Virus record (IMG/VR): IMGVR_UViG_3300021962_000044
Coordinates: 32,001-96,000 of that record
Source: a virus
Reading direction: 5' to 3' (one strand)
DNA length: 64,000 bases
Below the pieces are notes generated by a model that ran no database searches, was not told where the DNA came from, and saw only the letters and a list, made by a program, of their open reading frames with translations. Of this stretch, positions 35,028 through 64,000 are shown one piece after another. The position numbers and the translations under genes are program-made. The first letter of the stretch is position 1. Every line of letters begins with the position of its first letter.

Positions 35028-38000
35028 ATGAGCAATATTCTTAAAGGTATAATAAACGAAGTTAGTCCACATAACTATGATAGTGATTGGGATTATCAAG
35101 ATGCAGTAGCACGTAGTGGTAAATCACGTTCTAGCTATCGTTCACAAGAAGATGATACTTTTGACTCTGATGTTGCATATTCCAGAAAGATGTATCAATT
35201 GGGACAACAACAAAAGGCTGCAAAAGAAAAAGCACAACGTGATAGTGACCATGATAGATTGGCAAGTGGTACAAATGAAGATATAACTGAAGCCTCTAAT
35301 CCTTATGAACCAGTAATGATTCAAGGTTATGATAAGTGGCTTAAGTTAGTTAGTATTCCTAATGTTGATAGACATGCTTATAAAAGTGATATAACAGCAG
35401 TTACTTCCTTAGGTGATGTGATTGGTGAATTTAATACAGATAAAGATTTAGGATACGTTATTAAAAAATATGCTAAAGGTGTTAGTGAGAGTTTAGATGA
35501 TCCATGGGGAGATCAAGGTAACTTTGCAGGTGATAAGCCAGTTAATCTTGGTGGTGTCTCTATTAAGAATATACAAGTGGGTGATACTGTTAAGTATTTT
35601 GGACAACCTTCAAAAGTAGTTGCTATGAGTAAGGATCGTAAATATTCTCGCATCACAATTTCTAAAGGCATGGGTACTGTTACACAAGATGTATTAACAC
35701 GTGACTTACAACAATTAGGCCAGGGCAAAGCAATAGAAGAAAATGATAATATTCAAACTAGAATGCGAATGGATGATTATTATAAATTGGCAGATGCTAT
35801 TCAGGAAAAACTTAGACAAGCAATTAAACTAGGTGATAACGAACTTGTACATAAATTATCCAAAGAACGTGCTGACTTAGATGCACGTGTTAAAAAATAT
35901 GGATTGATACCAGAATCACAACTAGATGAAATCTCTAATGAAAAGTTAGCACAATACAAAACAGCTGCCGCATTAGATGCAGGCAAAGCTGATAAAGAAG
36001 GTGATTATAAACGTGGCGATAAACGTTTCAGTGGTATTGTTAAAGCAACTAAGAAACAGTTTGCTAATGATACAAAGAAATCTGGTATCAGTCAAGGTAT
36101 AAATGAATTTGCCCCCATTAAACCCCCTACTGCCGGGGCATTTGGTGGTAATAAAGATTACGGACAACCAAATAGTTCACGCTATATAGGTGGTAACAAG
36201 TTTGTAGTAGGTACTACTAACAATTATGTATTGACCGCTACAATAGACAAATGGGGATTAGAATGGGATGAGGATGACGAGATATGGTTCTTAGACAGTC
36301 CCGGTGCCGCACATATTGCTGATGCTAGTGAAGGTGAAATAGAACTACCTCCACCCCGTGAACAAAGAAATCAAATACATGATTTAGTAACTGATTATCT
36401 TAATGAAAGAAATTCTGCTGATTTACAAAAGGTAGCCGCATATTATGGTCACAGTAATGATGGCGAAATGGCAACAAATGAAAGTTCAGAAGCACCTAGA
36501 TTTAACAGTAAACAAGAAGTTATTAATCACTTTGTTAAAAACGGCAAAAGTGCGGCAGCAGGTGCAGCGGCATGGGAACGTGGTTATAGAGGTTCATCTA
36601 AGAAACCAATAGAGTTAAAAAAACCACCACAAAGAAGTTACCATGATGAACTAGATGATAAACGTTATTCAAATACATTTGAAAACTTAGGTGATCAATT
36701 GAAATCTAATTCATTAAACGCACTAGTTCAAGCCAAATTAGCTATAGAGCAACAACGTCAAGCTGAAATAGAAGCTTGGAAAAGAGATTTTGAAAAGAAT
36801 ACAGTACAAAAAGCACAACAAGGTTTACGTAGAGAATTTGAACCAACTCCAGTTGCACAGCCTGGCGAGAAGCATTCTGTATTGAAAGCTAGGTTAGCAC
36901 AATTAAATAATGCTATACAGAAGCAAGAACTAGTAGATAAGTTAGTTGATAGATTAGAGCGTAAGGGTTTAATGACTCCTGCAATGCAAAACGATACTGA
37001 TACAAGAATGCATGTTAAGTATGGTGCAAAAGATAACTATCAATCTTTAAATAAAAAATTAGACAATGCTATTCAAATGTTACAGAATAGATTAAATATC
37101 CGTAAAATTTCTGGATTAAAAGAAGGTCATGATGAGCGTGATGAATATGATAATCCTAGAATGGGTAGAGATTACGGCAAAGGCAATCTATTTGTAGATC
37201 CTGGTTCAAATGAATTTAAAAAAGAAGTACATATAGGTAGCAATGACGGCGAACGTGGCAGACCAAAAAATCTAAAGGGTGTTTCAAAAGTATTACCAGC
37301 TGATGCATTTGGCCGTACTACAGGTAAGATACCAGATAGTGCAAGACCAACATCAAAAGAAGATCCTTTTAAAGACGTTGATGAAGACCTAGACGAAAAT
37401 CTACATAAGTGGTTTCAAGAAAAGTGGGTACGATTTGGACCTGATGGTAAGATCCGTGGTGATTGCGCTAGAGGTGATGATAGTGAAGGTAAACCAAAAT
37501 GCTTACCACAAAGTAAAGCACAGAATTTAGGCAAAGCAGGTCGTGCTAGTGCGGCAAGTCGTAAGCGTAGAGAAGATCCTAATCCAGAACGCAGTGGTAA
37601 GGCTATCAATGTTGCTACTAAGAAAAAGAGTAACGAAGGTGTGGCGGAAGACCAACTTGATGAATTAAGTTGCTGGTCTGGTTATCATAGAGTCGCTGGC
37701 ACCAAAGCAGGCTTTCCAGGTAGTTGTGCTAAAAATAAAACAAACGAAGAAGCAGTTGATGAAGCTGATATGAACCGTAGAGGATTCTTAAAAGGTATGG
37801 GTGCGGCGGCTGTGGCAGGTAGCGCATTAGTTAATCCTATTGTTGCTAAAGCGCAAGATTCAACATCTGCTAGAGGAATAACAAAATCTGATTTACAAAA
37901 AAAATTCCCTAATAGTTTAGATATTAAAGCGACAGGAACAAGACCACCCTCTATTATAACGGATTTAGGTTTATCATCCGGTAAAAATTTAGAATTGGAA

Positions 38001-39365
38001 GTAAAGACTACCGATTTATTGGGTAATGCATCGTTAGGATATATTGAATTTATAAATGATATAATGGTTGGTCAATTTTATATCACTGATAAATCAAACT
38101 TACCAAAAATTTCAGCGTTTACTAAAAAGCCAGAAATTATTGAGTATTTTAAAAATATAGCCACACGAATATTAGGCACGGGTAAATTAGGTTCTGTTCA
38201 AGGAAAAATCTCACTAGACAAAGTAAATACGGATCAGGGAGTGGGAGCCGGAGTGATGAAAGGACTCTTTGAAATTAGTTATGATACAATTAATATTAAT
38301 GTAGAAACATCAAATGGATCAATTAACCTATTAGTCGGTGCCTATGAAAGTGGAAACTACTTTGTTATAAGTTTAATAACTGCAATAAAAAAACAACAAA
38401 ATAATTTAACACTTGACGAATTCAACAAAAAAGTTGTGGCGGAAGAACAACATAGTTGCCCACATTGCGGTGGCGAGATGGTTAGTGAAGAACTAATGAA
38501 TGAAAAGAAAGATGCTTGCTACTATAAAGTAAAGAGTCGTTATAAAGTATGGCCAAGTGCTTATGCATCTGGTGCGTTAGTTAAGTGTCGTAAGAGTGGT
38601 GCTGATAGTTGGGGAAACAGCGGTAAGAAAAACGAAAGCATTGAAGAAGGCTGGCAAGATGAAGCACAAGAGTTAGAGGACTGGTCAAAAGAAGTCAATA
38701 AGAAATTGTATAGAGCGCATGAAACTCAGCGTCCTGGACTAGCAAGACAACTAAGCAAACTAGAACAAAAACATTTTGGTAGTAGTCTAAATCAAGGATC
38801 ACTTACAGAAATAGTTAAGGCAGCATTGATGGCATTACAAAAAGGTCAAATGGTTCACTATGATCCACAACAAGTAGGTCAAATGCCATTTGGTAACATA
38901 GTAGGCGATGAAGCTAAACTTATTGCAAAATATAATATAACCCGTGACGAACTTGCTGGTTACCGTATGTTACACGATAAAAATATGGTAGATAATCTTG
39001 AACAATTTTTAAAGTTACGCCGTTTGGTACGTGCAAAGTCATGGCCTCTAGAGTATTATGAAGAACTAGAGAAGTTAACACCGGAAGAAGCATGGTTAAA
39101 AATGGCCGATGATTTGAATTGGTCCAAAGATGACATGAATGAAGAAATTCAATCTAAAACAGATGATAAGTTATTAGCATACTACGCACAGCGTAAGGCT
39201 GAAAAACAAAAACAACAAAGTCAACCACAAGACCAACTTGATGAAAAGTGGACTAAGAAATACAAAGATAGCATCAACTGTAGTAATCCAAAAGGATTTA
39301 GTCAAAAAGCACATTGTGCCGGTAAACAGAAAAATGAAAGTGCTATTATGAAAGGTCTTAAATAA
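35028..39365 (+). CDS. 1445-aa mosaic putative polyprotein with an internal Tat-signal module
   Basis: Leader MSNILKGIINE; more than 15 short modules bounded by xxE motifs; MNRRGFLKG..AKA at 37770-37853; small Cys-containing basic modules. Confidence 0.7.
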   Translation: MSNILKGIINEVSPHNYDSDWDYQDAVARSGKSRSSYRSQEDDTFDSDVAYSRKMYQLGQQQKAAKEKAQRDSDHDRLASGTNEDITEASNPYEPVMIQGYDKWLKLVSIPNVDRHAYKSDITAVTSLGDVIGEFNTDKDLGYVIKKYAKGVSESLDDPWGDQGNFAGDKPVNLGGVSIKNIQVGDTVKYFGQPSKVVAMSKDRKYSRITISKGMGTVTQDVLTRDLQQLGQGKAIEENDNIQTRMRMDDYYKLADAIQEKLRQAIKLGDNELVHKLSKERADLDARVKKYGLIPESQLDEISNEKLAQYKTAAALDAGKADKEGDYKRGDKRFSGIVKATKKQFANDTKKSGISQGINEFAPIKPPTAGAFGGNKDYGQPNSSRYIGGNKFVVGTTNNYVLTATIDKWGLEWDEDDEIWFLDSPGAAHIADASEGEIELPPPREQRNQIHDLVTDYLNERNSADLQKVAAYYGHSNDGEMATNESSEAPRFNSKQEVINHFVKNGKSAAAGAAAWERGYRGSSKKPIELKKPPQRSYHDELDDKRYSNTFENLGDQLKSNSLNALVQAKLAIEQQRQAEIEAWKRDFEKNTVQKAQQGLRREFEPTPVAQPGEKHSVLKARLAQLNNAIQKQELVDKLVDRLERKGLMTPAMQNDTDTRMHVKYGAKDNYQSLNKKLDNAIQMLQNRLNIRKISGLKEGHDERDEYDNPRMGRDYGKGNLFVDPGSNEFKKEVHIGSNDGERGRPKNLKGVSKVLPADAFGRTTGKIPDSARPTSKEDPFKDVDEDLDENLHKWFQEKWVRFGPDGKIRGDCARGDDSEGKPKCLPQSKAQNLGKAGRASAASRKRREDPNPERSGKAINVATKKKSNEGVAEDQLDELSCWSGYHRVAGTKAGFPGSCAKNKTNEEAVDEADMNRRGFLKGMGAAAVAGSALVNPIVAKAQDSTSARGITKSDLQKKFPNSLDIKATGTRPPSIITDLGLSSGKNLELEVKTTDLLGNASLGYIEFINDIMVGQFYITDKSNLPKISAFTKKPEIIEYFKNIATRILGTGKLGSVQGKISLDKVNTDQGVGAGVMKGLFEISYDTININVETSNGSINLLVGAYESGNYFVISLITAIKKQQNNLTLDEFNKKVVAEEQHSCPHCGGEMVSEELMNEKKDACYYKVKSRYKVWPSAYASGALVKCRKSGADSWGNSGKKNESIEEGWQDEAQELEDWSKEVNKKLYRAHETQRPGLARQLSKLEQKHFGSSLNQGSLTEIVKAALMALQKGQMVHYDPQQVGQMPFGNIVGDEAKLIAKYNITRDELAGYRMLHDKNMVDNLEQFLKLRRLVRAKSWPLEYYEELEKLTPEEAWLKMADDLNWSKDDMNEEIQSKTDDKLLAYYAQRKAEKQKQQSQPQDQLDEKWTKKYKDSINCSNPKGFSQKAHCAGKQKNESAIMKGLK

Positions 39366-39411
39366 TGAAAGACTATGATTTTTATTGGAATTTAAAAGGA
39401 TACCCTAGAGG

Positions 39412-40011
39412 CTAATCAAAAATTATTCTCCAACCCTTATAAGAGGTCTCGTTTTTTCGGATGAGACCTCTTAATCCTTTAGTACTAATAGAGTATTTTA
39501 TAGCAAATTCATATGAGGTACTGTATACTCTTTCTAGAGTATTGATGTTCTCAAAGCAATAGACTGTTTTATTAAATCTAGTATTATTAGTTCCGGCTTT
39601 GGATCGTTTTGTGAATTTTGAAGCATATTCATTTGATATTAATCTGCCGCGCACCCAACCTTCTGGAATATCTCCACGAATTTTCTTATTAATAATACCA
39701 TTGTTAATCCAAATAGTGCCATACATTGGATTATTCTCACCGGTATTCGATAATTTTGCGAGATAAGATTTTTCTTCAGGAGAGACTTTCATTCTCTGAG
39801 ACATGATTAAACATGCTTTGTAATCCCCTTGTGATTTATGTATTTCGTAATGTTCTTTGATGGAAACACATAGTAAATTTGATATTTCATTATTATTGTG
39901 ATTTCCATCAATATGATGAATTTCATAACTGCGACCATCTTCATCTTTAGGAATGGGCCCTATAAATGTTTCGTAAATCTTACGATGATCCGTGGTTGAA
40001 TAAATACTCAT
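39412..40011 (-). CDS. free-standing HNH homing endonuclease; probable start ATG 40011
   Basis: YEIHHIDGNHNNNEISNL.C.S..EH; GENNPMYG and WINNG..GWVRGR DNA-binding motifs; opposite strand to neighbours; SD AAGGAG. Confidence 0.88.
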   Translation of the reverse strand: MSIYSTTDHRKIYETFIGPIPKDEDGRSYEIHHIDGNHNNNEISNLLCVSIKEHYEIHKSQGDYKACLIMSQRMKVSPEEKSYLAKLSNTGENNPMYGTIWINNGIINKKIRGDIPEGWVRGRLISNEYASKFTKRSKAGTNNTRFNKTVYCFENINTLERVYSTSYEFAIKYSISTKGLRGLIRKNETSYKGWRIIFD

Positions 40012-40111
40012 GCTGGTGCTCCTTTTTAGCATTAGAGTAGTTGGGCCTGCCAGCCGCGAACTACACTTTTATTTATCATAAGTTTAGATAAATATATGAA
40101 TAAGGATTAAT

Positions 40112-40552
40112 ATGTTAGTAGAAAACTTAAAAGTGTTATTGGCTAGTACTCAAGTGTTTGCGATTAAAACGCAACAATTCCATTGGTGCGTAGAGGGGAC
40201 CAACTTCCCGCAATATCACGAATTCTTTAATACGTTATATGGAGATGTGAGTGCTACTATTGATCCTATTGCTGAATATATTAGAATACTAGGTCATTAC
40301 ACTCCGGGTAGTTTAACACGTTATGCAGAACTAAGTATCATTCAAGACCAAATTAAAATTCCACGTGCTGAGTTAATGTTTGCAGAATCATTGCAAGATT
40401 GTGAAGCAATGGGTCAACTTGTTGTTGCTATGTTTGATCAGGCAGCTAGTGAGAATCAGCATGGTATCGAAAACTATATGGCTGAACTACAAGATTTGTA
40501 TGGCAAGAAAGCATGGTTTATCCGTTCAACATTAAAAAGAGAACGTGAGTGA
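40112..40552 (+). CDS. dps: Dps/ferritin-like protein
   Basis: K...FHWCVEG.NF..YHEFF..LY..IDPIAEYIR.LG; C-terminal K.AWF. Confidence 0.88.
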   Translation: MLVENLKVLLASTQVFAIKTQQFHWCVEGTNFPQYHEFFNTLYGDVSATIDPIAEYIRILGHYTPGSLTRYAELSIIQDQIKIPRAELMFAESLQDCEAMGQLVVAMFDQAASENQHGIENYMAELQDLYGKKAWFIRSTLKRERE

Positions 40553-41046
40553 GAGCAATTGATTTTTTAATTGAAGTAGGTGACAGTCCATACAAGTTAC
40601 CTAACCGTTGGAAAAACAACGGAGATTCTGTTAAGAAGTCAATAGAATTACCTAGTGGTAATTATTTAGAAATTGATATAACGGCTGATACTAAATTAGC
40701 TTTAGTAAATTTTTATGTAGGTGGAAGTCAAAAAATTACAGGTGAGGGTGATGCTATTAAAATCTTTTCAACTGTAGGTAATGCCATAAATGATTATGCT
40801 ATAAAGAAAAGACCATATGTAATTTGTTTTACTGGTCACATATTTGATAATAGTAGAATACGTTTATATGATAGATTAGCAAACAGATGGTTAACTATGC
40901 CCGGGCTTAAGGGATATGTTAATTTAACAGACCATGAAGATTTATGGCCAACAGATTTAGTATATTTTATGGATGATATACAAGATTTAACCGATCAAAA
41001 AATTTATGTTTTAGCAAGCCCAACTTGGATGAGAAACGTAACATGA
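40549..41046 (+). CDS. hypothetical protein (leader MRAIDFLIE), paralogue of next gene
   Basis: EVGDSPY, ITGEGDAIKIFSTV, SRIRLY shared with ORF 41043. Confidence 0.65.
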   Translation: MRAIDFLIEVGDSPYKLPNRWKNNGDSVKKSIELPSGNYLEIDITADTKLALVNFYVGGSQKITGEGDAIKIFSTVGNAINDYAIKKRPYVICFTGHIFDNSRIRLYDRLANRWLTMPGLKGYVNLTDHEDLWPTDLVYFMDDIQDLTDQKIYVLASPTWMRNVT

Positions 41047-41846
41047 GAGCAACAGAATTTATTTTAAATGAGGTCGGGGACAATCCTTATACGTTTGAGC
41101 CATATCAACCACCCAATCAGCAACATATTAAAGTTCGTGCCCGTAATGCAATAGATAAAATACCTCCTAATAAAAATACAATTACAACTAATGTATCTAA
41201 TCCAAATATAAAAAATTATTCCTTCGTTACTAAAAACGGACTTAGATATGTTGTAATATTAAAACCTTCTACTCCAAAAGCTAACGGAGAGATTAACACA
41301 GTAGAACTAGCATTTTATGCTATTGATAAAAGAGGTAGACCAAATTTTGACCTCACTGGTACAGGTGATGCGGCAAATGTTTTTGCTACAGTAAAAAATG
41401 TATTAGCAAAATATATTGAAGAATATAATCCAAAACTTATTGGTTTTTCAAGTGAGAAAAAAATAGATACTACCCCAAACAACGATAGTAGATTTAAACT
41501 ATATTCATTATTTGCTAAACAGTTTAGTAAATGGTTTCCTGCTTATGCAAAATCATACACACGTGATGAAGCAGACAGAACTGTGTTTATGTTTAAGCGT
41601 AATGCTGATGAACAAGTTACTGAACAAACAAACCCTAAAATAGATTTGACACCAAACTATCCTAACTATAAAGTATTAGTGGGAGAGTTTATTGGCATTA
41701 GAAAAAACAGAGCAAGATTTTTAATTGTAGCATCTGAACTTAAACCAGGCGTACGTGAGACTGATAATATATTTAGAGCAAAAACAACTAATACACCAAT
41801 CAGTATTGAAATTAGTAAAGTAAAGAATCGAACAGTAGTAGGATAA
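41043..41846 (+). CDS. hypothetical protein (leader MRATEFILNE) with extra C-terminal module after VTE
   Basis: EVGDNPY, LTGTGDAANVFATV, SRFKLY; ATGA overlap supports start 41043. Confidence 0.65.
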   Translation: MRATEFILNEVGDNPYTFEPYQPPNQQHIKVRARNAIDKIPPNKNTITTNVSNPNIKNYSFVTKNGLRYVVILKPSTPKANGEINTVELAFYAIDKRGRPNFDLTGTGDAANVFATVKNVLAKYIEEYNPKLIGFSSEKKIDTTPNNDSRFKLYSLFAKQFSKWFPAYAKSYTRDEADRTVFMFKRNADEQVTEQTNPKIDLTPNYPNYKVLVGEFIGIRKNRARFLIVASELKPGVRETDNIFRAKTTNTPISIEISKVKNRTVVG

Positions 41847-41848
41847 AA

Positions 41849-42286
41849 ATGAAAAAAATATTAATATTAATAATGCTAACATTAACAACTATAGCATTTG
41901 CACAAAAACAAAAGCCAATGAATATATATGAATTTCCAATCACTAGAGTTATTGATGGAGATACTGTAGCATTTCAAGCACCGTTCTTACCCCCACCATT
42001 AAAACAAGAGTTAAGTATTCGTGTATTTGGTGTTGATACACCTGAAAAAGGTCATAGAGCAATGTGTCCAAGTGAAGACCAACGTGGTCAAGCCGCTACT
42101 GCATTTACAAAAAATGCTATCAGTAAAGCACAGAAACGTCAAGTAGCTATTGCTGATTGGGATAAGTATGGTGGACGTGTATTGGGTGATATAATACTTG
42201 ATGGACAAAGTTTAAGAATGATGTTAATACAGAATGGATTTGCAAGAGAATACTACGGAGAAGCTAAAACTTCTTGGTGCAACTAA
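41849..42286 (+). CDS. thermonuclease (SNase-like) with Sec signal peptide
   Basis: MKKILILIMLTLTTIAFA signal; RVIDGDT, IRVFGVDTPE, DKYGGRVLG, LIQNGFA. Confidence 0.9.
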   Translation: MKKILILIMLTLTTIAFAQKQKPMNIYEFPITRVIDGDTVAFQAPFLPPPLKQELSIRVFGVDTPEKGHRAMCPSEDQRGQAATAFTKNAISKAQKRQVAIADWDKYGGRVLGDIILDGQSLRMMLIQNGFAREYYGEAKTSWCN

Positions 42287-42287
42287 C

Positions 42288-42359
42288 ACACCTTAGGACC
42301 GGTACTTGTTACCGTGGTGTAGGCGGCTTCTGCCTTAAGCAATCCAATTCGCTACTGGA
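42288..42359 (+). ncRNA. candidate structured RNA element (multi-hairpin, GC-rich intergenic)
   Basis: ACACC/GGTGT enclosing CGGTA/TACCG; AGGCGG/CTGCCT; TCCA/TGGA; family not recognised. Confidence 0.35.
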
Positions 42360-42385
42360 CCTTATAAGTGAGCATAAATACTAAT

Positions 42386-43525
42386 ATGAGAGCAATAGAA
42401 CTATACGAATCAGCCGCAAGTGAACTAGCTAAGAAACTTCCTAGCTTAGAGAAGCACGACTATAATACCATTGATAAACTAATGAGAAATATAGCAAAGA
42501 AACATCGTATAACCGGTGATGCATTGCATGATTTATTTGTTAGAAAATATCACAAAACTCCAGACAGTTGGATTAAAGATAAACTAGATGAGGTTGGAGG
42601 ACGACATTACAACCCGGATGGTTCAACATATCGCGGATCCAATAATAAAATGCCGACATTAAATGATCCGGAAGATATTTATAACAGGGCAGAACGAGTA
42701 CCATATCAAGATCCAGCCGGTGAGGATCCTGAAATAGATGATAGTGTTAAACAAATTATTAAAAATGGATTAGACAGGTTAAGTGATGATGAACGAAAAG
42801 TATTAATTTTAAGATTTTGGCATGATTTGACATTACGACAAATTGCTGATAAGTTTGGACTATCTGAACCTAGAATAAGACAAATTGAAGCTAAGGGTTT
42901 AAGAAGATTACAAGTTTCTGCTAAACATAAAGGATATGATCCAGAAGCATTAAAACTGTATGTAAAACAAAACGAAAATCCACCAAAACTAATGGCTCAA
43001 GATAAAACCAAAGCACAAGCGTTAAAAGTAGCAAATGCGTATAAGACAGCGTTCCCAAAGAAGCCTTACTACCCGCCTAAAGCAAAGAAAGATATAGATA
43101 CGGGTGAAGTATGGGTTTACTACCCGCCTAAAGCAAAGAAAGATGTCATTAAAGAATCTGAACAAGAAGATTTAAATAATAATCCTATTGTACAGAAGTT
43201 TCTTGCTTGGACAAGTAAGAAGTTAAACTTAGAAACTACACCAAAGATAGAGTTTAGTTATGATAGTGATGAAGCACAAGAAGGTCATCATACTGGAAGA
43301 CATAATCCAGATACGGGTGAAGTATGGGTTTATTGTGCCAATAGAAATTTAGTAGATATATTACGTACTGTGTTCCATGAATTAACTCATGTACGTCAGG
43401 GTGAATTAAATATGATTAAGCCGGGTGATAGTTATCCAGGTAGTCCAATAGAAGCAGAAGCGGATGTAATGGCTGGCAAGTATATTAAGATATTTGGCAA
43501 AATGCATCCAGAAATATTTCAATAA
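42386..43525 (+). CDS. mosaic protein (leader MRAIELYE): sigma70 region-4 HTH module plus HExxH metallopeptidase-like module
   Basis: LSDDERKVLILRF..LTLRQIA.KFGLS..RIRQIEAKGLRRL; LRTVFHELTHVRQ..EAEAD; TAAATA 5 nt before ATG 42386. Confidence 0.7.
   Translation: MRAIELYESAASELAKKLPSLEKHDYNTIDKLMRNIAKKHRITGDALHDLFVRKYHKTPDSWIKDKLDEVGGRHYNPDGSTYRGSNNKMPTLNDPEDIYNRAERVPYQDPAGEDPEIDDSVKQIIKNGLDRLSDDERKVLILRFWHDLTLRQIADKFGLSEPRIRQIEAKGLRRLQVSAKHKGYDPEALKLYVKQNENPPKLMAQDKTKAQALKVANAYKTAFPKKPYYPPKAKKDIDTGEVWVYYPPKAKKDVIKESEQEDLNNNPIVQKFLAWTSKKLNLETTPKIEFSYDSDEAQEGHHTGRHNPDTGEVWVYCANRNLVDILRTVFHELTHVRQGELNMIKPGDSYPGSPIEAEADVMAGKYIKIFGKMHPEIFQ
43066..43144 (+). repeat. 28-bp exact direct repeat (43066-43093, 43117-43144)
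   Basis: TTACTACCCGCCTAAAGCAAAGAAAGAT twice; the intervening DNA matches 43309-43332. Confidence 0.9.
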
Positions 43526-43536
43526 AGGTTTTATAA

Positions 43537-44472: not shown

Positions 44473-44492
44473 ACAACAATTTACCATAATCA

Positions 44493-44521
44493 TTGCTAAT
44501 CAAATCATTCTATGTTATAAT
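44493..44521 (+). promoter_or_regulatory. sigma70-type promoter with extended -10
   Basis: TTGCTA-17-TATAAT with TGn; ATG 6 nt downstream. Confidence 0.7.
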
Positions 44522-44527
44522 AGCTAA

Positions 44528-45154: not shown

Positions 45155-45171
45155 TTATTTAAGGAGAAACT

Positions 45172-54288: not shown

Positions 54289-54369
54289 TAAATACATATG
54301 TTGCATAAAGGCAACAATATAGACCTAGGTCTCGTTGAGCATTAACGATAGATGCTTTGAAAGGAACAT

Positions 54370-55724: not shown

Positions 55725-55912
55725 AGTTTAAATTAGGTGATATGGTTAAAAAAGTATCAGGTTCACAATGGCACGGTAAAGTAGTAGGTACATATTCAAC
55801 TGAGTTAACTCCTGAAGGATATGCAGTTGAAAGTCATACAGAAAAAGGTTCTGTTCAAATATATCCTGCAAAGGCTCTTGAGTTATGGGAGTTGAATAAT
55901 GGGAATGCGTAA
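55721..55912 (+). CDS. dfrB: type II (R67/DfrB-like) dihydrofolate reductase
   Basis: [52 protein letters not shown] aligns without gaps to the R67 core, including VQIY. Confidence 0.88.
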
Positions 55913-56135
55913 ACAAATGGATTACAATAGTGTACATCATCAAATCTATATGTCTGGTGTAGAACTACATAGTAACTACAATGATGGTTACAATCAATTT
56001 GAAATCAAAAAAGATTTACATCGTATTAAATGGCTATTAGATGAGATTATGGCTGATAGTCCTACATTTGCAGGTGAGGATGAATTCTTAAAAGAACATG
56101 AGCAAACTAAGATGTGGAGAACTCTTTCAAAATGA
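55899..56135 (+). CDS. hypothetical protein
   Basis: 78-aa overlapping ORF. Confidence 0.55.
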
Positions 56136-56605
56136 TTTTTAATCACATTAAGAAACTTAAACAAGACGGTAAGAAAATTGGTATTACCTTCAGTACATTT
56201 GACCTACTTCACGCAGGTCATATTGCTATGTTAAGTGAAGCAAAGAATCATTGTGATTACTTAATTTGTGGACTACAAACTGACCCGACTATTGATCGTC
56301 CTGATACTAAGAATAAACCTATTCAAAGTATCGTAGAACGACAGATTCAACTTGCGGCTTGCCGTTATGTAGATGAAGTAGTTGTATATCAAACTGAACA
56401 GGACCTTATAGACTTATTACTTATTCTACCATTAGATGTTCGCATTTTGGGTGTTGAATATGCTGAGAAAGAGTTTACTGGAAGATATGAAGGCGGAGAG
56501 CGTGGCATTGAACTTGTGTTTAATGGTCGTGACCACAGTTTCAGTAGTTCAAGTTTACGTAAACGGGTAGCTGATGCCCAAATTATTAATACTCTTAATA
56601 AATAA
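56132..56605 (+). CDS. cytidylyltransferase (TagD/RfaE-like); start probably 56132
   Basis: FSTFDLLHAGH, CDYLICGL, KP..S..ER, RYVDEV, SSS.LR. Confidence 0.88.
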   Translation: MIFNHIKKLKQDGKKIGITFSTFDLLHAGHIAMLSEAKNHCDYLICGLQTDPTIDRPDTKNKPIQSIVERQIQLAACRYVDEVVVYQTEQDLIDLLLILPLDVRILGVEYAEKEFTGRYEGGERGIELVFNGRDHSFSSSSLRKRVADAQIINTLNK

Positions 56606-56681
56606 GATAACCGGTCTCTTTGGGCTCATCCCGGTATACAAATTCTGCGTCCTATGCTATAATATAACATAGGAGAACACA

Positions 56682-57164
56682 ATGGCAAACAAAAAATTCT
56701 TTTCAACAAAAACATACAGACAAATAGGTCCTGTAGCATATCGTCAATGGCGTGCTGACAGTCATTGTAACTTAATTCATGGATATGCTATGAGTTTTCA
56801 CTTTGAGTTTGAAGCTGATACATTAGATGCCCGTAACTGGGTAACTGACTTTGGTGGATTACGCCCACTTAAAGATAAACTAGAAGAATGGTTTGACCAT
56901 ACTCTACTAGTCGCACAAGATGACCCAATGCGTGAACATCTATTAGAACTAGGTAGATTGAAACTAGCAAAGATTACAGAAGTAGAACGTACTGGTTGTG
57001 AAGGTATTTCAGACTTTTTATACGAATATGTTAATACAATCTTTTTACCTAACTGCGGTAGTGAAGAAGCTAAACGTGTTTGGTGTTGTAGAGTAGAAGT
57101 ACGTGAGACTGATAGCAATATGGCAGGCCGTAGTGGTCACAGAGAAGATAGAGAGTTTGAGTAA
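56682..57164 (+). CDS. queD: 6-carboxytetrahydropterin synthase
   Basis: SHCNLIHGY, WVTDFG, FDHTLL, GCE, VEVRET. Confidence 0.88.
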   Translation: MANKKFFSTKTYRQIGPVAYRQWRADSHCNLIHGYAMSFHFEFEADTLDARNWVTDFGGLRPLKDKLEEWFDHTLLVAQDDPMREHLLELGRLKLAKITEVERTGCEGISDFLYEYVNTIFLPNCGSEEAKRVWCCRVEVRETDSNMAGRSGHREDREFE

Positions 57165-58012
57165 TGGCACAGTTAAAAATTTCAGAACTATTTTATAGTA
57201 TACAAGGAGAGGGCCGATATATCGGTGTACCAAGTATTTTCCTAAGAACATTTGGTTGTAACTTTACCTGTGCAGGCTTTGGCATGCCTAAAGGTCAAGT
57301 AAGTAAAGAAGTAGAAGATATTGCCGCAAGGGTTCACTATTATGATGATTATAAAAAATTACCGTTGGTTAGTACAGGGTGTGATAGTTATGCTAGTTGG
57401 GATCCTAGGTTTAAGCATCTTAGCCCTATGCGTAGCACCGATGATATTGTTGACAGCATTATGGCTATGCTTCCTCACAGTCGCTGGATGGATGAGCACC
57501 TTGTTATCACTGGTGGAGAGCCTCTACTTGGTTGGCAAAGGTCTTATCCTGAATTACTTTCAAACGAAAAGATGAGAGCATTAAAAGAGATTACTTTTGA
57601 AACTAATGGTACACAAGAACTAAGTCAAGACCTATCAATCTATCTACAGAAGTGGAAGATTAATAGAGAAAAGAATGCATTAACATTTAGTGTTAGTCCT
57701 AAACTAAGTATCAGTGGTGAGAAGTGGGAAGACGCAATTTGTCCTGATATCATTCGTCAATATGAAACTGTAGGCTTTGTGTATTTAAAGTTTGTGATTG
57801 CTACTAAAGAAGATGCATTAGAAGCAGATAAAGCCGTACAAGCGTTTCGGACTGGTGGATTTAGAGGTCCAGTATACTTTATGCCATGCGGTGGTGTAGA
57901 ATCTGTTTATAATTTAAATGCAAAAAATGTTGCTATTGAAGCAATGAATCGTGGTTATCGTTATAGTGATAGATTACAAGTGCCGTTGTTTAAGAATGAA
58001 TGGGGAACATAA
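57164..58012 (+). CDS. queE: 7-carboxy-7-deazaguanine synthase (radical SAM)
   Basis: ISELFYSIQGEG..G.P..FLRTFGCNFTC..(insert)..CDS, VITGGEPL, ETNGT, SVSPKL. Confidence 0.92.
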   Translation: MAQLKISELFYSIQGEGRYIGVPSIFLRTFGCNFTCAGFGMPKGQVSKEVEDIAARVHYYDDYKKLPLVSTGCDSYASWDPRFKHLSPMRSTDDIVDSIMAMLPHSRWMDEHLVITGGEPLLGWQRSYPELLSNEKMRALKEITFETNGTQELSQDLSIYLQKWKINREKNALTFSVSPKLSISGEKWEDAICPDIIRQYETVGFVYLKFVIATKEDALEADKAVQAFRTGGFRGPVYFMPCGGVESVYNLNAKNVAIEAMNRGYRYSDRLQVPLFKNEWGT

Positions 58013-58021
58013 GATAGTTCC

Positions 58022-58255
58022 ATGTTAGATTATCCAATAGATGATGATGTATTTTACAACAATGCATTAATGAGAGGTCTAGGATCAACTCTTAAGTTTG
58101 CATGGTTGCCTAAAAGATGCGTGTTAACAGGTAAGTTAATTTGGTTAAAATATGGTTATAGAATTACAGCAATGTGGACAGGGCCAGGTGAGCCCGTATT
58201 TGAACACAAGTGGCACGATAAGAATGCCCATATTATGTGGTTATTAAAAAGGTAA
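58022..58255 (+). CDS. hypothetical protein
   Basis: KFAWLPKRC..TGK.IWL..GY. Confidence 0.5.
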   Translation: MLDYPIDDDVFYNNALMRGLGSTLKFAWLPKRCVLTGKLIWLKYGYRITAMWTGPGEPVFEHKWHDKNAHIMWLLKR

Positions 58256-58259
58256 ATAT

Positions 58260-58442
58260 ATGTATGAATTAAGATATCTTGTCCGAAGTGGTTGGGACGG
58301 ACCTGAACAAGTGTTACAATATAGAACACAACTTGAAGTTACAGACTATAGCGGAACTACTACAAACGGTAGTTTTACTAAAAAACGTGAATGGACTGAA
58401 TGGCAAGATGTACCTACTATAGATGAAACTAAGAAAAAATGA
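58260..58442 (+). CDS. hypothetical protein
   Basis: LQYR..WTEWQDVP; ATGA overlap with next gene. Confidence 0.55.
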   Translation: MYELRYLVRSGWDGPEQVLQYRTQLEVTDYSGTTTNGSFTKKREWTEWQDVPTIDETKKK

Positions 58443-59776
58443 GAACATACGATAAACGAATTGGCTTTTTAGTAAGCTATCAAACCCTCATCCCGCACGG
58501 GGGAATAGGGCAATTTACTAAAAGTTTTTGCGAATTAATGAATCAACATAATATTAAAGTTGATATCATTACGGATAAAGAACCACAAAATACTGAGTTT
58601 GTTAAATCTATAAAAGCAAATATTATTGCTCCATTGGAATCATTAAAATATACCGATCACAGCAGTATCTTTATGTATGGAGATACATTTTGTTATGAAC
58701 GAATGGCTAACTTCCGTACAGCTATTGTAGAAGCATTAGAACATAATCTATATGATGCATTGATATGTAACACCTACGAAACTGTACAAGTAGCAAGTAC
58801 TATGGGACTTGAAGATGTTATTCAAGTGATTGCATACACACACTTAGAAAGTCAAATCTTTAAAGATACAAAAAATCCCTTTTTGTATTCTACAAATGAA
58901 ATGATGCGTAAACAATTAGATATGAATGGTATTGTAGTTGGTACACAGAGTAAATTTAATCAAGTTAGTATTGGTGACACAGTATTTCATTTACCTATTC
59001 CTATCACCGAGTCTAGTCTATTAAAAGAATATCACAATCCGCGTGAAGGTATATTGTTTGTAGGTAGATGGGAAGAAGGTAAGAATCCTGAATTGTTTAT
59101 TGATTTAATTGAACAAACAAAACTACCTGCAAAAGTTATGACTAGTCCAAACGGTGTTAAGAAGTTTGAAGAACGACTATCAAAATTAGGTGTCAAGTAT
59201 GATGTTCGTGCTAGTATTGTAGGTCAAGAAAAAGTTGACTTTATGACAAGTGCTAGAATTGCATTCAATCCTAGTATTGTTGAGAGTTATGGTATGGCAT
59301 TCTATGAACAACATATTCAATTACCTACATTAGTATTAGAAAATCAACGTTGGACTAATAACTTTAACAAAGATTTCTTTTACACTTGTACTAAAAAAGA
59401 TATGGCATCAAAAGCAAAAGAATTGTACGATATTTTTGAAAAAGCAGAAAGATGGTATAACTTGGGATCATTGCAACATGCACAAGAACAAGAAGCTACT
59501 GTCTTTCATAAATGGAACAACTGTTTTAATGACTTTGAACCTAAAAAATCTAACACAAATACTGCAAAGATATGTAATGAAAATACAGTTAAACTTGTTG
59601 ACTTCATTAGTGATTTAAACCGTAGTATTATATGTATTGATGATGTACGCAGTGTTTTAACCAATAAACATAAGTTTAGAGTTATCTATACTGATGACGA
59701 CACATATTTAACAAAAGATCCTAGTTTTGAACCAATAGAAGAAGTTGAAAGTTTATCACTATTTGAGGGATTATGA
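58439..59776 (+). CDS. GT-B (GT4-like) glycosyltransferase
   Basis: PHGGIGQF, ILFVGRWEEGKNP, FNPSIVESYGMAFYE. Confidence 0.85.
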   Translation: MRTYDKRIGFLVSYQTLIPHGGIGQFTKSFCELMNQHNIKVDIITDKEPQNTEFVKSIKANIIAPLESLKYTDHSSIFMYGDTFCYERMANFRTAIVEALEHNLYDALICNTYETVQVASTMGLEDVIQVIAYTHLESQIFKDTKNPFLYSTNEMMRKQLDMNGIVVGTQSKFNQVSIGDTVFHLPIPITESSLLKEYHNPREGILFVGRWEEGKNPELFIDLIEQTKLPAKVMTSPNGVKKFEERLSKLGVKYDVRASIVGQEKVDFMTSARIAFNPSIVESYGMAFYEQHIQLPTLVLENQRWTNNFNKDFFYTCTKKDMASKAKELYDIFEKAERWYNLGSLQHAQEQEATVFHKWNNCFNDFEPKKSNTNTAKICNENTVKLVDFISDLNRSIICIDDVRSVLTNKHKFRVIYTDDDTYLTKDPSFEPIEEVESLSLFEGL

Positions 59777-60603
59777 AAAAGATTTTAATTACTGGTTGTT
59801 CAGGATACATAGGTTCACATCTATCTAAGATGTTAGCTAATGATTATGAAGTTTATGGTTTAGATATTGATGAACCACAGGCACCACTTAATGAGTTTTA
59901 TCGCTGTGATATCAATAGACAATTTGCTATCCCAGGTGATATAGAATATGATTGTGTAATTCATTTAGCGGCATTAGTACGTGTGGGTGAGAGTGAACAA
60001 ATACCTATCAAGTACTATATCACTAACTTAAATGGTACAATGAATGTAGTTAATAAAATAAAGACAAAGAACTTTATCTTTGCTAGTACAGGCGCCGCAC
60101 AAGATTGTTCTAGTGCTTATGGTATCAGCAAGCGAGCCGCTGAAGATGTAGTTAGAGAATATTGTACAAAACATAAACAACAAGATTATACTATCTTTAG
60201 ATTCTATAACGTTATCGGAAGTGATGGTTATGAACCAACCAACCCTGATGGTTTAATGTACAAACTAATGGAAGCACGTGATACAGGCGTATTTACTATA
60301 TATGGTAATGATTATGATGTATCACCTGACGGTACTTGTGTACGTGACTATGTTCATGTTAATGAAATATGTGATGCAATAAAACAAGCTATTGAGAAGC
60401 CTAGTAATAGTGTTGAATGTCTAGGACATGGTGTAGGATATACGGTACAAGATATTGTTGATTTATTTCAAAAAGTAAATAATTGTGACTTTACAGTAAA
60501 ATACGGCACTAGAAGAAAGGGTGATTTACCTAGTAGTGTACTAGCCAATGTGTCACCTTATATGCGTAATCTTTACTCTATGGAAGAGTTATTGAAAGTT
60601 TAA
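59773..60603 (+). CDS. NAD-dependent epimerase/dehydratase (GalE-like)
   Basis: ILITGCSGYIGSHL, HLAA, YGISK, RFYNV.G, DGTCVRDYVHV, RRKGD. Confidence 0.92.
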   Translation: MKKILITGCSGYIGSHLSKMLANDYEVYGLDIDEPQAPLNEFYRCDINRQFAIPGDIEYDCVIHLAALVRVGESEQIPIKYYITNLNGTMNVVNKIKTKNFIFASTGAAQDCSSAYGISKRAAEDVVREYCTKHKQQDYTIFRFYNVIGSDGYEPTNPDGLMYKLMEARDTGVFTIYGNDYDVSPDGTCVRDYVHVNEICDAIKQAIEKPSNSVECLGHGVGYTVQDIVDLFQKVNNCDFTVKYGTRRKGDLPSSVLANVSPYMRNLYSMEELLKV

Positions 60604-62126
60604 GCTAAATGTGTCATTAAGGTATTCATTTGTTGAACACCACCTTTTGATAACTGAAATCCTTTTTGGTCTGCACGTTTGATTCGTTGGTCATAACTAG
60701 GATGTGAGCTATTGGGAAGTTTAGTTATACTATTATAAAAGTCGTAATCAGATTGTTTTTGGTGCAAGAACTTAAACATCTCAACTTTGTTGTAACCTAA
60801 AGCCCTACATAACTTAATAGCAAAGTCGTCAGCATCCATTTCTTCCCGACGTGCTTTCCCGGGATCAGGCTGAAAACCGTGTCCTAGGGCAATGTGTCCC
60901 AGTTCATGTGCAATAGCAAATGCCAGTGTAGAATCAGGAGCATCCCAAAACACAGTTAGGTCAAGACTGACATTACGAGTATCAGCATTTCCTTGAACCC
61001 ACTGGTCATTCGACGTAACAAGAACTTTTGTCCCCTGCAGTCTTTGTGCCCATTCTGGTCCGGCGGCTCGCATTAACTTACCCAGCATACCATTACTGCG
61101 TTGTTGCAGTTGTTCAAATCTAGGCATCCAAACGTCAGGTTGTTTTTTTATAGTTTCTAAATCTTGATATTCACCTGCTTTAGCTAAACCAGTAGCACCT
61201 AATGCGGCAGCACCTGCTGCACCTTTAAGCAGGTCTCTACGACTAATAGCTTCAGCTAATTCATTGTTCGTTTTTACAATAGGTGGAACCCAGTTGTATA
61301 GTTCTCTTGGACCGCCGGATTCATTGTGGTAATAATTTGCTTTAAACGGACCATCAAATTTAATAACGTTTTGAACTTCTTTTGGATTACCACCTGTTAA
61401 TCTCTTAAATGCATCTATTGCTTTTTCTTTTGTCAAACCAGCCTTATTAAACTCACCGGTATCACCAATAGGCAAGATTAAGCCATCAGGTGTAGCACTC
61501 CATAATGTATATCCATCTGGATTGTCTCTCCTTGCTACGATTTGAACTTCATTTGGCTTATAGTAATGTTTACTATTCAATGGTGGTTTAGCTAACTTAC
61601 GTGAGAACGTTCCCTTATTAGTAGGATCATCTTTCATAGCAGTTAATTCTAAGCCACTATCACTAATCAATTTTAATAGACCTTCTGGAACTTTATTCAT
61701 TAACTCTTTGCGTATCTGAATGCCCACAACATATGGTTTCTTAACAGGGATCCCTATACCTCTCGGATGATAGATACGTTCTTCTGTTTCTTGTTTATAC
61801 ATTGGGTTACTAGCTGTTGGACCCGTACCATCAGGTTGATTATAGAATTGCATATAAGAGAATGGCATTACTTTGAATCCAGCTTGACGTAATGCATTTC
61901 TATCTAGTACAAGTTGAATACTGCCGCCGCCATACGGGAATCTATAATATTGATTTCTACTTGCGCTGATTACTGGTATCTCCCAACCACCTTCTTCATC
62001 TGTATCAGATAAGTGTGGTTGTATCACACCTTTTCTGAGTATGTTCCAGATTTGATTAGGTTGTGATACACTATGATAAACATAGTCTCCGCCTACGGCT
62101 TCTGATAAAAATTCACTTGCTCTCAT
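60600..62126 (-). CDS. mosaic protein (leader MRASEFLSE): ART-like module, internal Tat signal, M48-type zinc peptidase
   Basis: YVYHSV..ISASRN..LVLDR..ETEERI; LAE|AISRRDLLKGAAGAAALGATGLAKA; LAFAIAHELGH..EMDAD..SSHPS..RI. Confidence 0.75.
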   Translation of the reverse strand: MRASEFLSEAVGGDYVYHSVSQPNQIWNILRKGVIQPHLSDTDEEGGWEIPVISASRNQYYRFPYGGGSIQLVLDRNALRQAGFKVMPFSYMQFYNQPDGTGPTASNPMYKQETEERIYHPRGIGIPVKKPYVVGIQIRKELMNKVPEGLLKLISDSGLELTAMKDDPTNKGTFSRKLAKPPLNSKHYYKPNEVQIVARRDNPDGYTLWSATPDGLILPIGDTGEFNKAGLTKEKAIDAFKRLTGGNPKEVQNVIKFDGPFKANYYHNESGGPRELYNWVPPIVKTNNELAEAISRRDLLKGAAGAAALGATGLAKAGEYQDLETIKKQPDVWMPRFEQLQQRSNGMLGKLMRAAGPEWAQRLQGTKVLVTSNDQWVQGNADTRNVSLDLTVFWDAPDSTLAFAIAHELGHIALGHGFQPDPGKARREEMDADDFAIKLCRALGYNKVEMFKFLHQKQSDYDFYNSITKLPNSSHPSYDQRIKRADQKGFQLSKGGVQQMNTLMTHLA

Positions 62127-64000
62127 TAGTGTTTCAATAATAGTGTTGACAATACATCTTGTCTATTAGCACTGATATCACCCTCACCCGGGGCAATAAT
62201 AACATTCCATTTCTTAATGTTATTCTTTTGAGGAGTAGCCATCATCTCATTGTAATCAATGATAGTATCACGTTTTAAGTTATATTGTTGTGCTAATCTG
62301 TCTTTTAATTCGTCTAATGCTGCCGCATCTTTTGGTTGCCATGCACCATCAGCAGTCTTATCTAACTTACCGGTCTCATCTTTCTTTAATAAGTCATAAA
62401 ATAACTTACTAGGAACAATACGACTATTTTTTGTAACATCTAATTGCGGGTCTTGTTGTTTAACTTGTTTTTCTTGACTAGTACTTGCACCTTCACTCCA
62501 GTTAACAATAAAGTTACTTGGCTTTTGACCTAATGCCGCATCTGCTATTTTTGTATAAGCATAGAACTTAACATCAGGATGAGAGGCAGCTAACTTAAAT
62601 GCTAAATCCATATATTCTGGGCTAAAGAAATCACCAGCATCATGCCAACGAATAGTTAGATTGTAACCACCTTTTTGTGCTGATTTTTCTTCTTTTGTAA
62701 TTTCATTACTTAATTGATTGAAGAAACCATCTGGATCATTCAATAAGAAAGTTAGTATTCTTCCGTCGCTTAACCATGGCCCTTCAAACTGAACCTTACC
62801 GCCCTTCATAGCAAAACAATCCACTTTACATGAGCCGGCACCTGGACATGTATTAACTACTATAAGTTCGTTTGTACCTTCATCTAATGCGATACCAACT
62901 AATGCGGCAAAGCCAATGTTATAAAATTGTTCTAGTTCACCATTAGAATGTTTCATCTTCTCATTTTGTTTAAGAAGTTTCTTTGGGCGAACACCTAATG
63001 CTGTTTTGATTTGGTCTGTATCGTAGCGTTTACCTTCTTCATTGTAGTATTTGACTACACTTGAGCGATGTATGTAAGGTAGTTTATATTTGTCTGTTTT
63101 ACCCTTTTCACGATTACGAATTCTATCTAAGTAATCTTCTAGTTCTTGACCTTTTAGTTCACGTGTTTGTGCTGGGAGTTTTGTTGCTTCATTTACACCT
63201 TGTTTTTTTATTAATGAAATAATATTACTAATACCATTTAATGAAATATCCCTCTCGGATGTAGTTCCAAATTTACCAGTTGGGTTTTGCCATGTAAATT
63301 TCACTGTTAAAACATTTGAATTAGCAATTTTATCAAGGGCATGGGTTAAATCTACTCTACCCCTATTAGAAATAGTTACAGGAATGGTTTTAATAGTATT
63401 GGTATTATTATTCAACATATACTTGAATTCAGTATTTGGCTGAAAATTATAGTCATGTCCTAACTTAAATGTTAACCGTAAACCACCATAATTTATCCAA
63501 TGAAGAAAAAGGTCATTAGTATTATTAGATGCCATAATTTCTTTATCTTTTTTATCAAATTTTGATGTTCTAATAGTTACGCTCCATTCACCAATATTTT
63601 CAGTTGTAGTATTTGATAAAGCTTCACCGGCTGCGCCCGTTGCGGCTGCCGCGCCCATACCTTTTAAGAACCCTCTACGGCTAATGTCAGCTTCATTCAC
63701 ACCGTGTTGTTTATGTTGTGTAGATGGTTTACCACGTTTATCACTATCAGGGAACATTATAGACATACTTTTACCATAAGCCTGATCAATTGTTTTAGGA
63801 TCTATTTTAGATTTATCAGTTCTAGCCTTATGTGTAAACTGTGCTAATTGTTCAGGGGACATTTTATCTAATTCTTCGGAAGACATTTCATCTATTTTTT
63901 CTTCCGGTTCATCACCTGATTGAGCAAGGAATTGATCCATACTCATAACTTTGATGCCACCTACAGCACCCGGTAATTTGGGTGTCGCACCCTCAAATAA
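62126..64000 (-). CDS. mosaic protein, 5' end outside the window: internal Tat-signal module plus Cys-rich GP88/radical-SAM-like domain
   Basis: Frame stays open to the window edge (LFEGATPKLPGAVGGIKV-MSMDQ); VNE|ADISRRGFLKG; TCPGAGSCKVDCFA..IRWHDAGDF..FYAYTK. Confidence 0.7.
   Translation of the reverse strand, partial: LFEGATPKLPGAVGGIKVMSMDQFLAQSGDEPEEKIDEMSSEELDKMSPEQLAQFTHKARTDKSKIDPKTIDQAYGKSMSIMFPDSDKRGKPSTQHKQHGVNEADISRRGFLKGMGAAAATGAAGEALSNTTTENIGEWSVTIRTSKFDKKDKEIMASNNTNDLFLHWINYGGLRLTFKLGHDYNFQPNTEFKYMLNNNTNTIKTIPVTISNRGRVDLTHALDKIANSNVLTVKFTWQNPTGKFGTTSERDISLNGISNIISLIKKQGVNEATKLPAQTRELKGQELEDYLDRIRNREKGKTDKYKLPYIHRSSVVKYYNEEGKRYDTDQIKTALGVRPKKLLKQNEKMKHSNGELEQFYNIGFAALVGIALDEGTNELIVVNTCPGAGSCKVDCFAMKGGKVQFEGPWLSDGRILTFLLNDPDGFFNQLSNEITKEEKSAQKGGYNLTIRWHDAGDFFSPEYMDLAFKLAASHPDVKFYAYTKIADAALGQKPSNFIVNWSEGASTSQEKQVKQQDPQLDVTKNSRIVPSKLFYDLLKKDETGKLDKTADGAWQPKDAAALDELKDRLAQQYNLKRDTIIDYNEMMATPQKNNIKKWNVIIAPGEGDISANRQDVLSTLLLKH

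Follow-up and report, generated by a model that had tools for sequence, protein, structure and literature searches.

Tat-type signal cassettes follow hydrophobic-x-Glu joints inside modular proteins of an uncultured jumbo phage

What is an export signal doing deep inside a long viral protein? The question is raised by three open reading frames (ORFs), P0002, P0003 and P0004, each of which carries a complete signal for the twin-arginine translocation (Tat) pathway far from its N-terminus. All three lie in a 64,000-nucleotide stretch, hereafter the window, that comprises bases 32001–96000 of the 111,075-bp IMG/VR virus record IMGVR_UViG_3300021962_000044; coordinates are those of the window unless stated otherwise. 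A preliminary description of the window proposed that the ORFs encode polyproteins cut by a prohead protease, such that each signal is masked in the producer cell, uncovered during head maturation and used for export of the attached domain only after injection into the next host. Here we find that the underlying layout, a Tat cassette behind a joint in a modular ORF, is a real and recurrent architecture, and we put forward the route from virion to periplasm as a tentative reading of it.

The signals themselves lie in frame, deep inside long ORFs, where the preliminary description had placed them, and their peptides read exactly as it gave them. The twin arginines (RR) fall at residue 917 in P0002, 296 in P0003 and 90 in P0004 (113 in the 629-residue form of that protein introduced below), none of which is N-terminal. 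They are embedded in the consensus cores NRRGFLK, SRRDLLK and SRRGFLK, respectively, each followed by an Ala/Gly-rich hydrophobic region (h-region), which in P0004 is short and weakly hydrophobic. The Pfam profile TAT_signal (PF10518) scored the three at 18.1 (P0002), 22.0 (P0003) and 23.5 bits (P0004) against a cut-off of 22.7, which P0004 passes. When a Tat model, TIGR01409, was run on fragments trimmed at the joint glutamate, as had been suggested, it returned 19.9, 19.9 and 23.1 bits, all above its curated cut-off of 16.7. A six-frame scan of the whole record for RRx[FL]LK found only these three motifs, all in long frames; the rough expectation from composition is about 0.4.

The finer anatomy of the signals holds up in most respects. 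An AxA or AxS end had been described for all three; an AxA-type c-region fits P0002 (AKA|Q) and P0003 (AKA|G) but is weaker in P0004 (ALS|N). Two of the signals lack a Met, as had been noted: ATT occupies that position in P0003 and P0004, and only P0002 has a Met there (ATG 37770). A hydrophobic-x-Glu joint precedes each signal (AVDE, ELAE and GVNE) at a spacing of 3–4 residues, or 2–4 when relatives are included, and the domains that follow, of 189 (P0002), 191 (P0003) and 142 (P0004) residues, are unrelated to each other. The signals of P0002 and P0004 are highly similar at the DNA level. By these measures all three are genuine signal peptides of the Tat type, set within cassette-like proteins, with export as their predicted function. 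No TatA or TatC gene was found in the phage records searched, so the host translocase would be needed.

A survey of relatives, which the preliminary description had called for, extended this picture. Scanning IMG/VR with a DNA pattern for RRGFLKGMGA yielded 12 loci, all in long open frames, on contigs of up to 524 kb and from genomes of 36–48% GC. The RR lies 88–888 residues into the frame in 10 of them, and an acidic joint stands before it in every one (...QGVAE|GSLEE|(I/V)D-RR, VDE|DIS-RR, VQE|DID-RR, TDE|AID-RR); the cargoes differ from locus to locus.

At P0004, exchange of such units can be followed at a single joint. The protein consists, in order, of an N-module, a joint, the Tat signal, its cargo, a second joint and a GP88 domain. 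Its start most likely lies 23 codons upstream of the frame as first read, at window position 64015 and thus just outside the window, which would give a protein of 629 residues beginning MNFTELFE|G; this upstream N-terminus is 87–93% conserved in relatives. Between N-module and GP88 flanks that are 87–99% identical, the joint occurs in four states. One relative (L014) has no insert (...NVNE|ATKLPAQ); the window has VNE|ADIS-RRGFLKG, the 142-residue cargo and QGVNE|ATKLPAQ; L010 and L011 have VNE|AGMN-RRGFLKG, an h-region ending in the lipobox VAGC, another cargo and GLNE|ATKLPAQ; and in L012 VLE|G leads into a third cargo, which lacks a signal, and then KVSE|ATKLPAQ. Every unit at this joint ends in (V/L)xE, and the lipobox of L010, correctly placed after the h-region, argues for true export signals. 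No relatives of the P0004 cargo were found in IMG/VR with peptide patterns or among proteins of 96–307 residues; a language model pairs it with small proteins of Pseudomonadota, among them the VasI and IalB families, a resemblance that serves as a lead only.

The cargo of P0003 belongs to a family that could be traced more widely. It matches PF01435 at 32.3 bits (cut-off 20.3), a partial match over profile positions 137–183 of 186, and its HELGH motif is invariant across 32 homologues. An AF2 model of the cargo (pLDDT 83.6) finds its best fold matches in E. coli BepA, minigluzincins, selecase and IrrE-type proteins, all of them weak (E ~0.02). Scanning IMG/VR with the signal-plus-peptidase part gave 15 loci, 13 of which contain a stand-alone gene with the order (M/V)RA(N/S)EFIxE, then 2–3 residues, then RRDLLKG. 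The two loci without a stand-alone gene at the match are L014, which has the fused form as in the window, and L016, where the match falls on a different Tat cassette (EAVDE|ADMSRRGFLKG) and a stand-alone copy lies ~670 bases downstream. The joint that precedes the P0003 signal, NNELAE, resembles what would be left of MRANEFISE, the leader found in stand-alone homologues.

We classified 66 homologues of this cargo from a protein database by their leader and Tat content. Leader (MRAxEF[IV]xE) and Tat signal occur together in 43, with the signal 11–12 residues from the N-terminus; 7 have the leader and a Pro/Ala/Thr-rich linker instead of the signal; 1, with the start MSRRGFLRG, has the signal without the leader; in 3 the peptidase is fused behind a further module; in 2 the signal follows some other N-terminus; and 10, several of them apparently truncated, have neither. 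Hydrophobic-x-Glu stands 2–3 residues ahead of RR in 28 of 29 distinct contexts within the family. Replacement of the whole Tat signal by a linker, with the leader kept, is seen in P0047, P0051, P0053, P0056 and P0058–P0062, and phages seem to differ in whether they equip this enzyme with an export signal.

The cassette of P0002 is likewise mobile between contexts: EAVDE|ADM(S/N)RRGFLKG is also present in L016 and L034, there ahead of different cargo. Relatives of the P0002 cargo amount to two representatives among 1.84 billion, of which the better, P0071, is the only real one, a stand-alone protein with the leader MDIRSLIEQLDE followed by a Tat signal. A locus search with this cargo matched a single locus, over the signal itself only; its AF2 model was unusable (pLDDT 31) and was discarded, and atlas look-alikes fell below a useful score. 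Several other modules of P0002 are found in T4-like cyanophages as separate or otherwise combined ORFs. Its basic Cys-containing modules (37300–39365), together with those of a 353-residue ORF, recur in another combination in PSSM2_123 of Prochlorococcus phage P-SSM2 (L079), a conserved T4-like cyanophage gene that sits between gp15 and gp16 in a structural cluster.

What kind of protein, then, carries these cassettes? In phage T4, ipII and ipIII start MKTYQEFIAE (read from NC_000866) and ipI has ...ITE at residue 19; this start is a capsid-targeting sequence that is removed by gp21 (PMC9026906, PMC3012670). Tested for a leader of ~10 residues ending in (L/I)xE, P0003 (MRASEFLSE) fits, and P0002 (MSNILKGIINE) and P0004 (MNFTELFE) fit more loosely. 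Leaders also occur on proteins without a Tat signal, namely the 7 peptidase homologues above, the genes at 40549 and 41043, and one at genome position 97073 (MRFTEIISE), which marks the leader as a unit of its own and not the n-region of a Tat signal. The ORFs of the two operons at 29011–39365 (+) and 60600–65073 (−), eight together, further share a linker, [QE]G[VILM][ATS]E[GANDS], which is found 9 times in their 4895 residues and 0 times in the 25,017 residues of other ORFs (shuffle mean 0.03).

Joints are not reserved for Tat signals. The ORF at 29011–30900 (+) contains a HIGH-motif nucleotidyltransferase module and then, at residues ~190–225, NELDE|GMGK followed by a 20-residue Ala/Gly/Leu-rich hydrophobic segment without RR; at the homologous position L031 reads QGVAE|GSLSE|ID-RRGFLKG, a full Tat signal. 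The segment in the window could be what decay has left of a Tat signal, or else a signal of another kind. A rule that Tat signals only, and never those of the general secretion (Sec) pathway, stand behind joints was rejected, as Ala/Gly-rich hydrophobic segments without RR also follow them.

The joints are, moreover, conserved at the DNA level, as GGT NTN RCG GAA GGC (30106–38447, 63188–63706), in codons that are rare in the genome (GCG, ACG and GGC). Of 9 joints with Ala or Thr ahead of GAA, 7 use GCG or ACG, compared with a genome usage of 5–7%, and GGC is used for the following Gly; near-identical joint repeats flank the P0004 insert. This pattern suggests that cassettes are exchanged by recombination at the joints, and it makes the conservation of a joint a weaker argument for a protease site. 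It explains neither the open frames nor the persistence of hydrophobic-x-Glu where the DNA of the joint differs.

A protease of the appropriate type is encoded in the lineage. The relative G004 (IMGVR_UViG_3300027749_002876; L050–L076), a 524-kb contig whose sheath protein is 72% identical to that of the window over its full length, carries an internal Tat cassette. Its head module follows the T4 order: portal, a 74-residue protein reading MKLFEMFDE|A, an acidic protein, Peptidase_S77 (94 bits), scaffold and major capsid protein, in the last of which LLAE|S aligns with the T4 gp23 maturation site LTE|A. The nearest cultured phages by sheath protein (~45% identity) are Agrobacterium phage Atu_ph07, Sinorhizobium phage Phosso and Pseudomonas phage PA5oct, and Atu_ph07 and PA5oct also encode S77. 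Many similar, non-identical genes lie in inverted order toward both ends of G004 (for example, 18719–21436 and 508476–511193), so its CheckV rating of '100% complete' needs care; two related genomes may have been joined in a chimeric contig, or the contig may contain very large inverted duplications.

We tentatively read the three ORFs as T4-type packaged polyproteins whose processing would expose Tat signals for export by the host after injection, a reading that we consider quite possible while placing it short of probable, and in which we infer packaging, cleavage and export alike. A short N-terminal leader of the MRAxEF[IL]xE type would target each protein into the prohead, where a T4-type (S77) prohead protease would cut after the hydrophobic-x-Glu joints and separate the modules. 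A cut before the signal would create a new N-terminus, with an n-region of 2–4 residues ahead of RRxFLK. The fragments would be ejected with the DNA into the next host, whose post-translational Tat translocase would export the cargo, and signal peptidase would remove the signal. The cargoes in question are the M48-like peptidase and two orphan domains, with a lipoprotein in a relative. In favor of this reading we count the signals themselves, the T4-like leader, the spacing of joint and RR, the indel series at P0004, the head module of G004 and the recurrence of P0002 modules in PSSM2_123. Modules of cytoplasmic type, the GP88 domain and the basic Cys-rich modules, follow the cargo in the same ORF, so that releasing the cargo alone for export would require cleavage at both of its ends. 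The surroundings of the three ORFs are replication and metabolism genes, not a head module; the T4 ip genes lie outside the head module as well.

Part of the interpretation offered in the preliminary description is supported by comparison with relatives: the proteins are modular, the joints are of hydrophobic-x-Glu type, the Tat signals follow joints, the leaders are T4-like and a T4-type protease is present in the lineage. Its masking step is weakened by the stand-alone homologues, 43 of the 66, in which the signal already lies near the N-terminus.

Several further points weigh against the packaging route. Export of those stand-alone forms in the producer cell would need no cleavage, given a signal 11–12 residues from the start, and the premise that Tat signals act only at an N-terminus is not strict, as internal ones work in dual Sec-Tat membrane proteins (PMC3471235, PMC5449189). 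Neither an S77 protease nor a gp23 homologue was found on the 111-kb fragment, which is 32% complete; the head-gene profiles PF03420 and PF07068 had no match on this fragment and none in control genomes either, which makes that search uninformative. No Tat cassettes were found in Atu_ph07 and PA5oct, where the leader pattern gave 3 matches and no enrichment, so that their virion proteomes offer no guide. Some peptidase homologues have the leader without the signal, and one has the signal without the leader. The rare codons, used at joints far beyond their frequency in the genome, mean that joint conservation may reflect recombination and not protease recognition, and the Ala/Gly-rich segments without RR behind joints make the link between joint and Tat signal non-exclusive. 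Finally, we know of no precedent for a route from virion to cytoplasm to periplasm.

The first alternative is export in the infected, producing cell with no capsid route, the signal acting as an ordinary N-terminal one, after a cut by a cytoplasmic protease, or from within the protein. The position of the signal in the 43 homologues, the single homologue starting MSRRGFLRG and the functional internal Tat signals of other proteins (PMC3471235, PMC5449189) all accord with it, as do the siting of the genes amid replication and metabolism genes and the periplasmic M48 proteases, such as BepA, among the best if weak fold matches. It leaves unaddressed, however, a leader that is common to Tat-less proteins and resembles the T4 capsid-targeting sequence, and it would have the cytoplasm-type modules downstream exported too unless the protein were cut. 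In a hydrophobicity scan of the genome's ORFs, the parts upstream of the three signals showed no hydrophobic stretch and hence, unlike in dual Sec-Tat proteins, no transmembrane helices. Proteins that these phages secrete in the ordinary way seem to rely on Sec or lipoprotein signals at the N-terminus and lack the leader, and a location outside the head module is shared by the T4 ip genes. On balance, we regard producer-cell export as somewhat unlikely, yet as a serious rival to the packaging route.

Alternatively, the joints and Tat cassettes could be mainly units of DNA recombination and the fused ORFs by-products of cassette shuffling among neighboring genes, so that a signal works only near an N-terminus and hydrophobic-x-Glu is the scar of a shared joint, not a protease site. 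The codon bias of the joints, the likeness of the P0002 and P0004 signals in DNA, the repeats around the P0004 insert and the existence of the same cargo in stand-alone and fused form would all follow. The frame nevertheless stays open across the joints in 10 of 12 independent long ORFs at 36–48% GC, where random frames close quickly, and hydrophobic-x-Glu holds despite differing DNA and neighbors (VNE, LAE, VDE, LEE, VQE, ITE). Recombination at the joints is also compatible with their being protease sites and does not exclude it. As the main explanation, shuffling strikes us as improbable.

Separate translation of signal and cargo from an internal start (ATG 37770 in P0002, ATT in P0003 and P0004) is a very unlikely account. 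The residue two before RR is always Met, Ile or Val (ATG, ATT, ATA, ATC, GTA), as might be left by a decayed or near-cognate start, but Shine-Dalgarno pairing at the three sites (−1.0, +0.4 and −3.0 kcal/mol) is no better than at random internal codons (mean −1.5). Furthermore, GTA, seen in some relatives, does not serve as a start codon; stand-alone genes, which begin at a start of their own 11 codons upstream, retain the same Ile; and internal initiation leaves the fused frames unexplained. We give as little credence to the idea that the segments are membrane-active or anchoring parts of ejected or assembly proteins and merely resemble Tat signals, since, despite the hydrophobic segments without RR behind similar joints (residues 203–222 of the ORF at 29011–30900; G004) and the short, weakly hydrophobic h-region of P0004, the full (S/N)RRx(F/L)LK, h-region and AxA are present and pass curated models, a relative has its lipobox rightly placed after the h-region, and loss of the signal in the peptidase family is loss of the whole signal.

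The packaging route that we tentatively prefer has partial parallels in known systems. The T4 internal proteins IPI, IPII and IPIII (and Alt) likewise combine a short N-terminal leader ending in hydrophobic-x-Glu with hypervariable cargo, and have in common with the present proteins genes outside the head module and a T4-type S77 protease in the lineage. The proteins described here differ in chaining several modules per ORF with internal joints, and in that some modules start with a complete Tat signal; their packaging and cleavage are predictions. No T4 internal protein is known to us to carry an export signal, and full-text searches joining the two subjects gave no result. Polyvalent proteins, multi-domain effectors believed to travel with the DNA and to be split by processing (Iyer et al. 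2017, PMC5512222), resemble those of the window in their multi-domain build, a zincin-type metallopeptidase among the modules and variable architectures, and the modules here occur alone, reordered or absent in relatives. Polyvalent hallmark domains such as MPTase-PolyVal, ArdC-N and MuF were not detected by Pfam in the three ORFs, which give only TAT_signal, Peptidase_M48 and GP88, and the joints look like prohead-protease sites and not, as in polyvalent proteins, autoproteolytic ones. The terms signal peptide, twin-arginine and periplasm have 0 occurrences in the text of PMC5512222.

Other likenesses concern the cargo and the signal. The periplasmic M48 metalloproteases BepA and LoiP of E. 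coli share with the P0003 cargo an HExxH zincin motif and a PF01435 score above cut-off, but the cargo has ~190 residues and no TPR domain, and its equivalog scores fall far below the cut-offs (17 bits against 570). In bipartite chloroplast transit peptides, the stromal peptidase exposes a thylakoid Tat signal. As in the proposed route, a first targeting segment is cut off and the Tat signal becomes the new N-terminus (see PMC10267391); the likeness is one of logic only, the proteins, protease and compartments being unrelated. Dual Sec-Tat proteins, such as the Streptomyces Rieske protein Sco2149 (PMC3471235, PMC5449189), have a functional Tat signal inside the polypeptide, as is predicted here, but there Sec-inserted transmembrane helices lie upstream and no cleavage is required, whereas here the upstream parts are soluble modules of 85–900 residues. 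In line with the novelty claimed in the preliminary description, full-text literature searches turned up no account of phage proteins that are packaged or ejected and bear Tat signals, or of such a layout.

Table 1. Features of the window and record, with window coordinates and strand
Feature	Position	Strand	Description
P0002	35028..39365	+	1445-residue modular ORF; last gene of tight operon 29011-39365; N-terminus MSNILKGIINE
Joint AVDE before P0002 signal	37752..37763	+	hydrophobic-x-Glu
P0002 Tat-type signal	37764..37853	+	residues 913-942; ADMNRRGFLKG, Ala/Gly-rich h-region, VAKA
P0002 cargo	37854..38420	+	189 residues, no fold assigned, ends LTLDE
P0003	60600..62126	-	508 residues: leader MRASEFLSE (62100-62126), 280-residue N-module, joint, Tat signal, peptidase
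Joint NNELAE before P0003 signal	61251..61268	-	hydrophobic-x-Glu
P0003 Tat-type signal	61176..61250	-	residues 293-317; AISRRDLLKG, h-region, LAKA
P0003 cargo	60603..61175	-	M48-like zinc metallopeptidase; HELGH at 60894-60908
P0004	62126..64000	-	ORF 62126-63946 as first read; extends beyond window end
Joint HGVNE before P0004 signal	63692-63706	-	
P0004 Tat-type signal	63614..63691	-	ADISRRGFLKGMGAAA...; residues 86-111
P0004 cargo	63188..63613	-	142 residues, variable insert, ends in second joint KKQGVNE (63188-63208)
GP88-family domain of P0004	62129..63187	-	PF17338, E = 2.2e-27; 97-99% identical in L010-L014
Four modular ORFs upstream of P0002	29011..35026	+	share linker [QE]G[VILM][ATS]E
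Two adjacent genes with leader, no Tat signal	40549..41846	+	MRAIDFLIE (40549), MRATEFILNE (41043)
Contractile tail sheath (1191 residues) and tail tube proteins			encoded in window/record
T4-type family B DNA polymerase, QueE and 2OG-oxygenase genes			encoded in window/record
Clp-like ATPase and sigma-like factor			encoded in window/record

Judged from its sequence, the source of the record (32% complete by CheckV; 35.5% GC) is an uncultured jumbo phage with a T4-like core. Among cultured phages, megablast with the ORFs and tblastn with P0003 returned no match. The T4 late promoter TATAAATA occurs 9 times against ~15 expected per strand and so shows no enrichment, and expression timing is therefore not inferable from it. 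An HNH homing-endonuclease gene at 39412–40032 (−) directly follows the plus-strand polyprotein operon on the opposite strand. Downstream of the two leader-bearing genes listed in Table 1, a stand-alone ORF of 145 residues at 41849–42286 (+) begins with a Sec-type signal of classical form (MKK, then hydrophobic residues and AFA|Q) and has no leader. Elsewhere in the window, a DnaJ-like J-domain protein adjoins a 758-residue Clp-type AAA+ ATPase (phrog_4871) at 24212–27313 (+).

If the packaging route is true, it would be a new way for a virus to put ready-made proteins into the bacterial periplasm, Tat being the only export pathway open to finished, folded proteins, and it would carry the concept of injected phage effectors beyond the cytoplasm to the cell envelope. 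Pre-made effectors, including a peptidase, a lipoprotein and orphan domains, would be in the envelope within minutes of infection, and the variable cargoes would represent a library of envelope-directed effectors, acting for example against envelope-based defenses or superinfection. Even with export in the producer cell, these genes would reveal an unusually clear modular construction of proteins in jumbo phages, built from a leader, protease-type joints and swappable signal-plus-cargo units with conservation at the DNA level.

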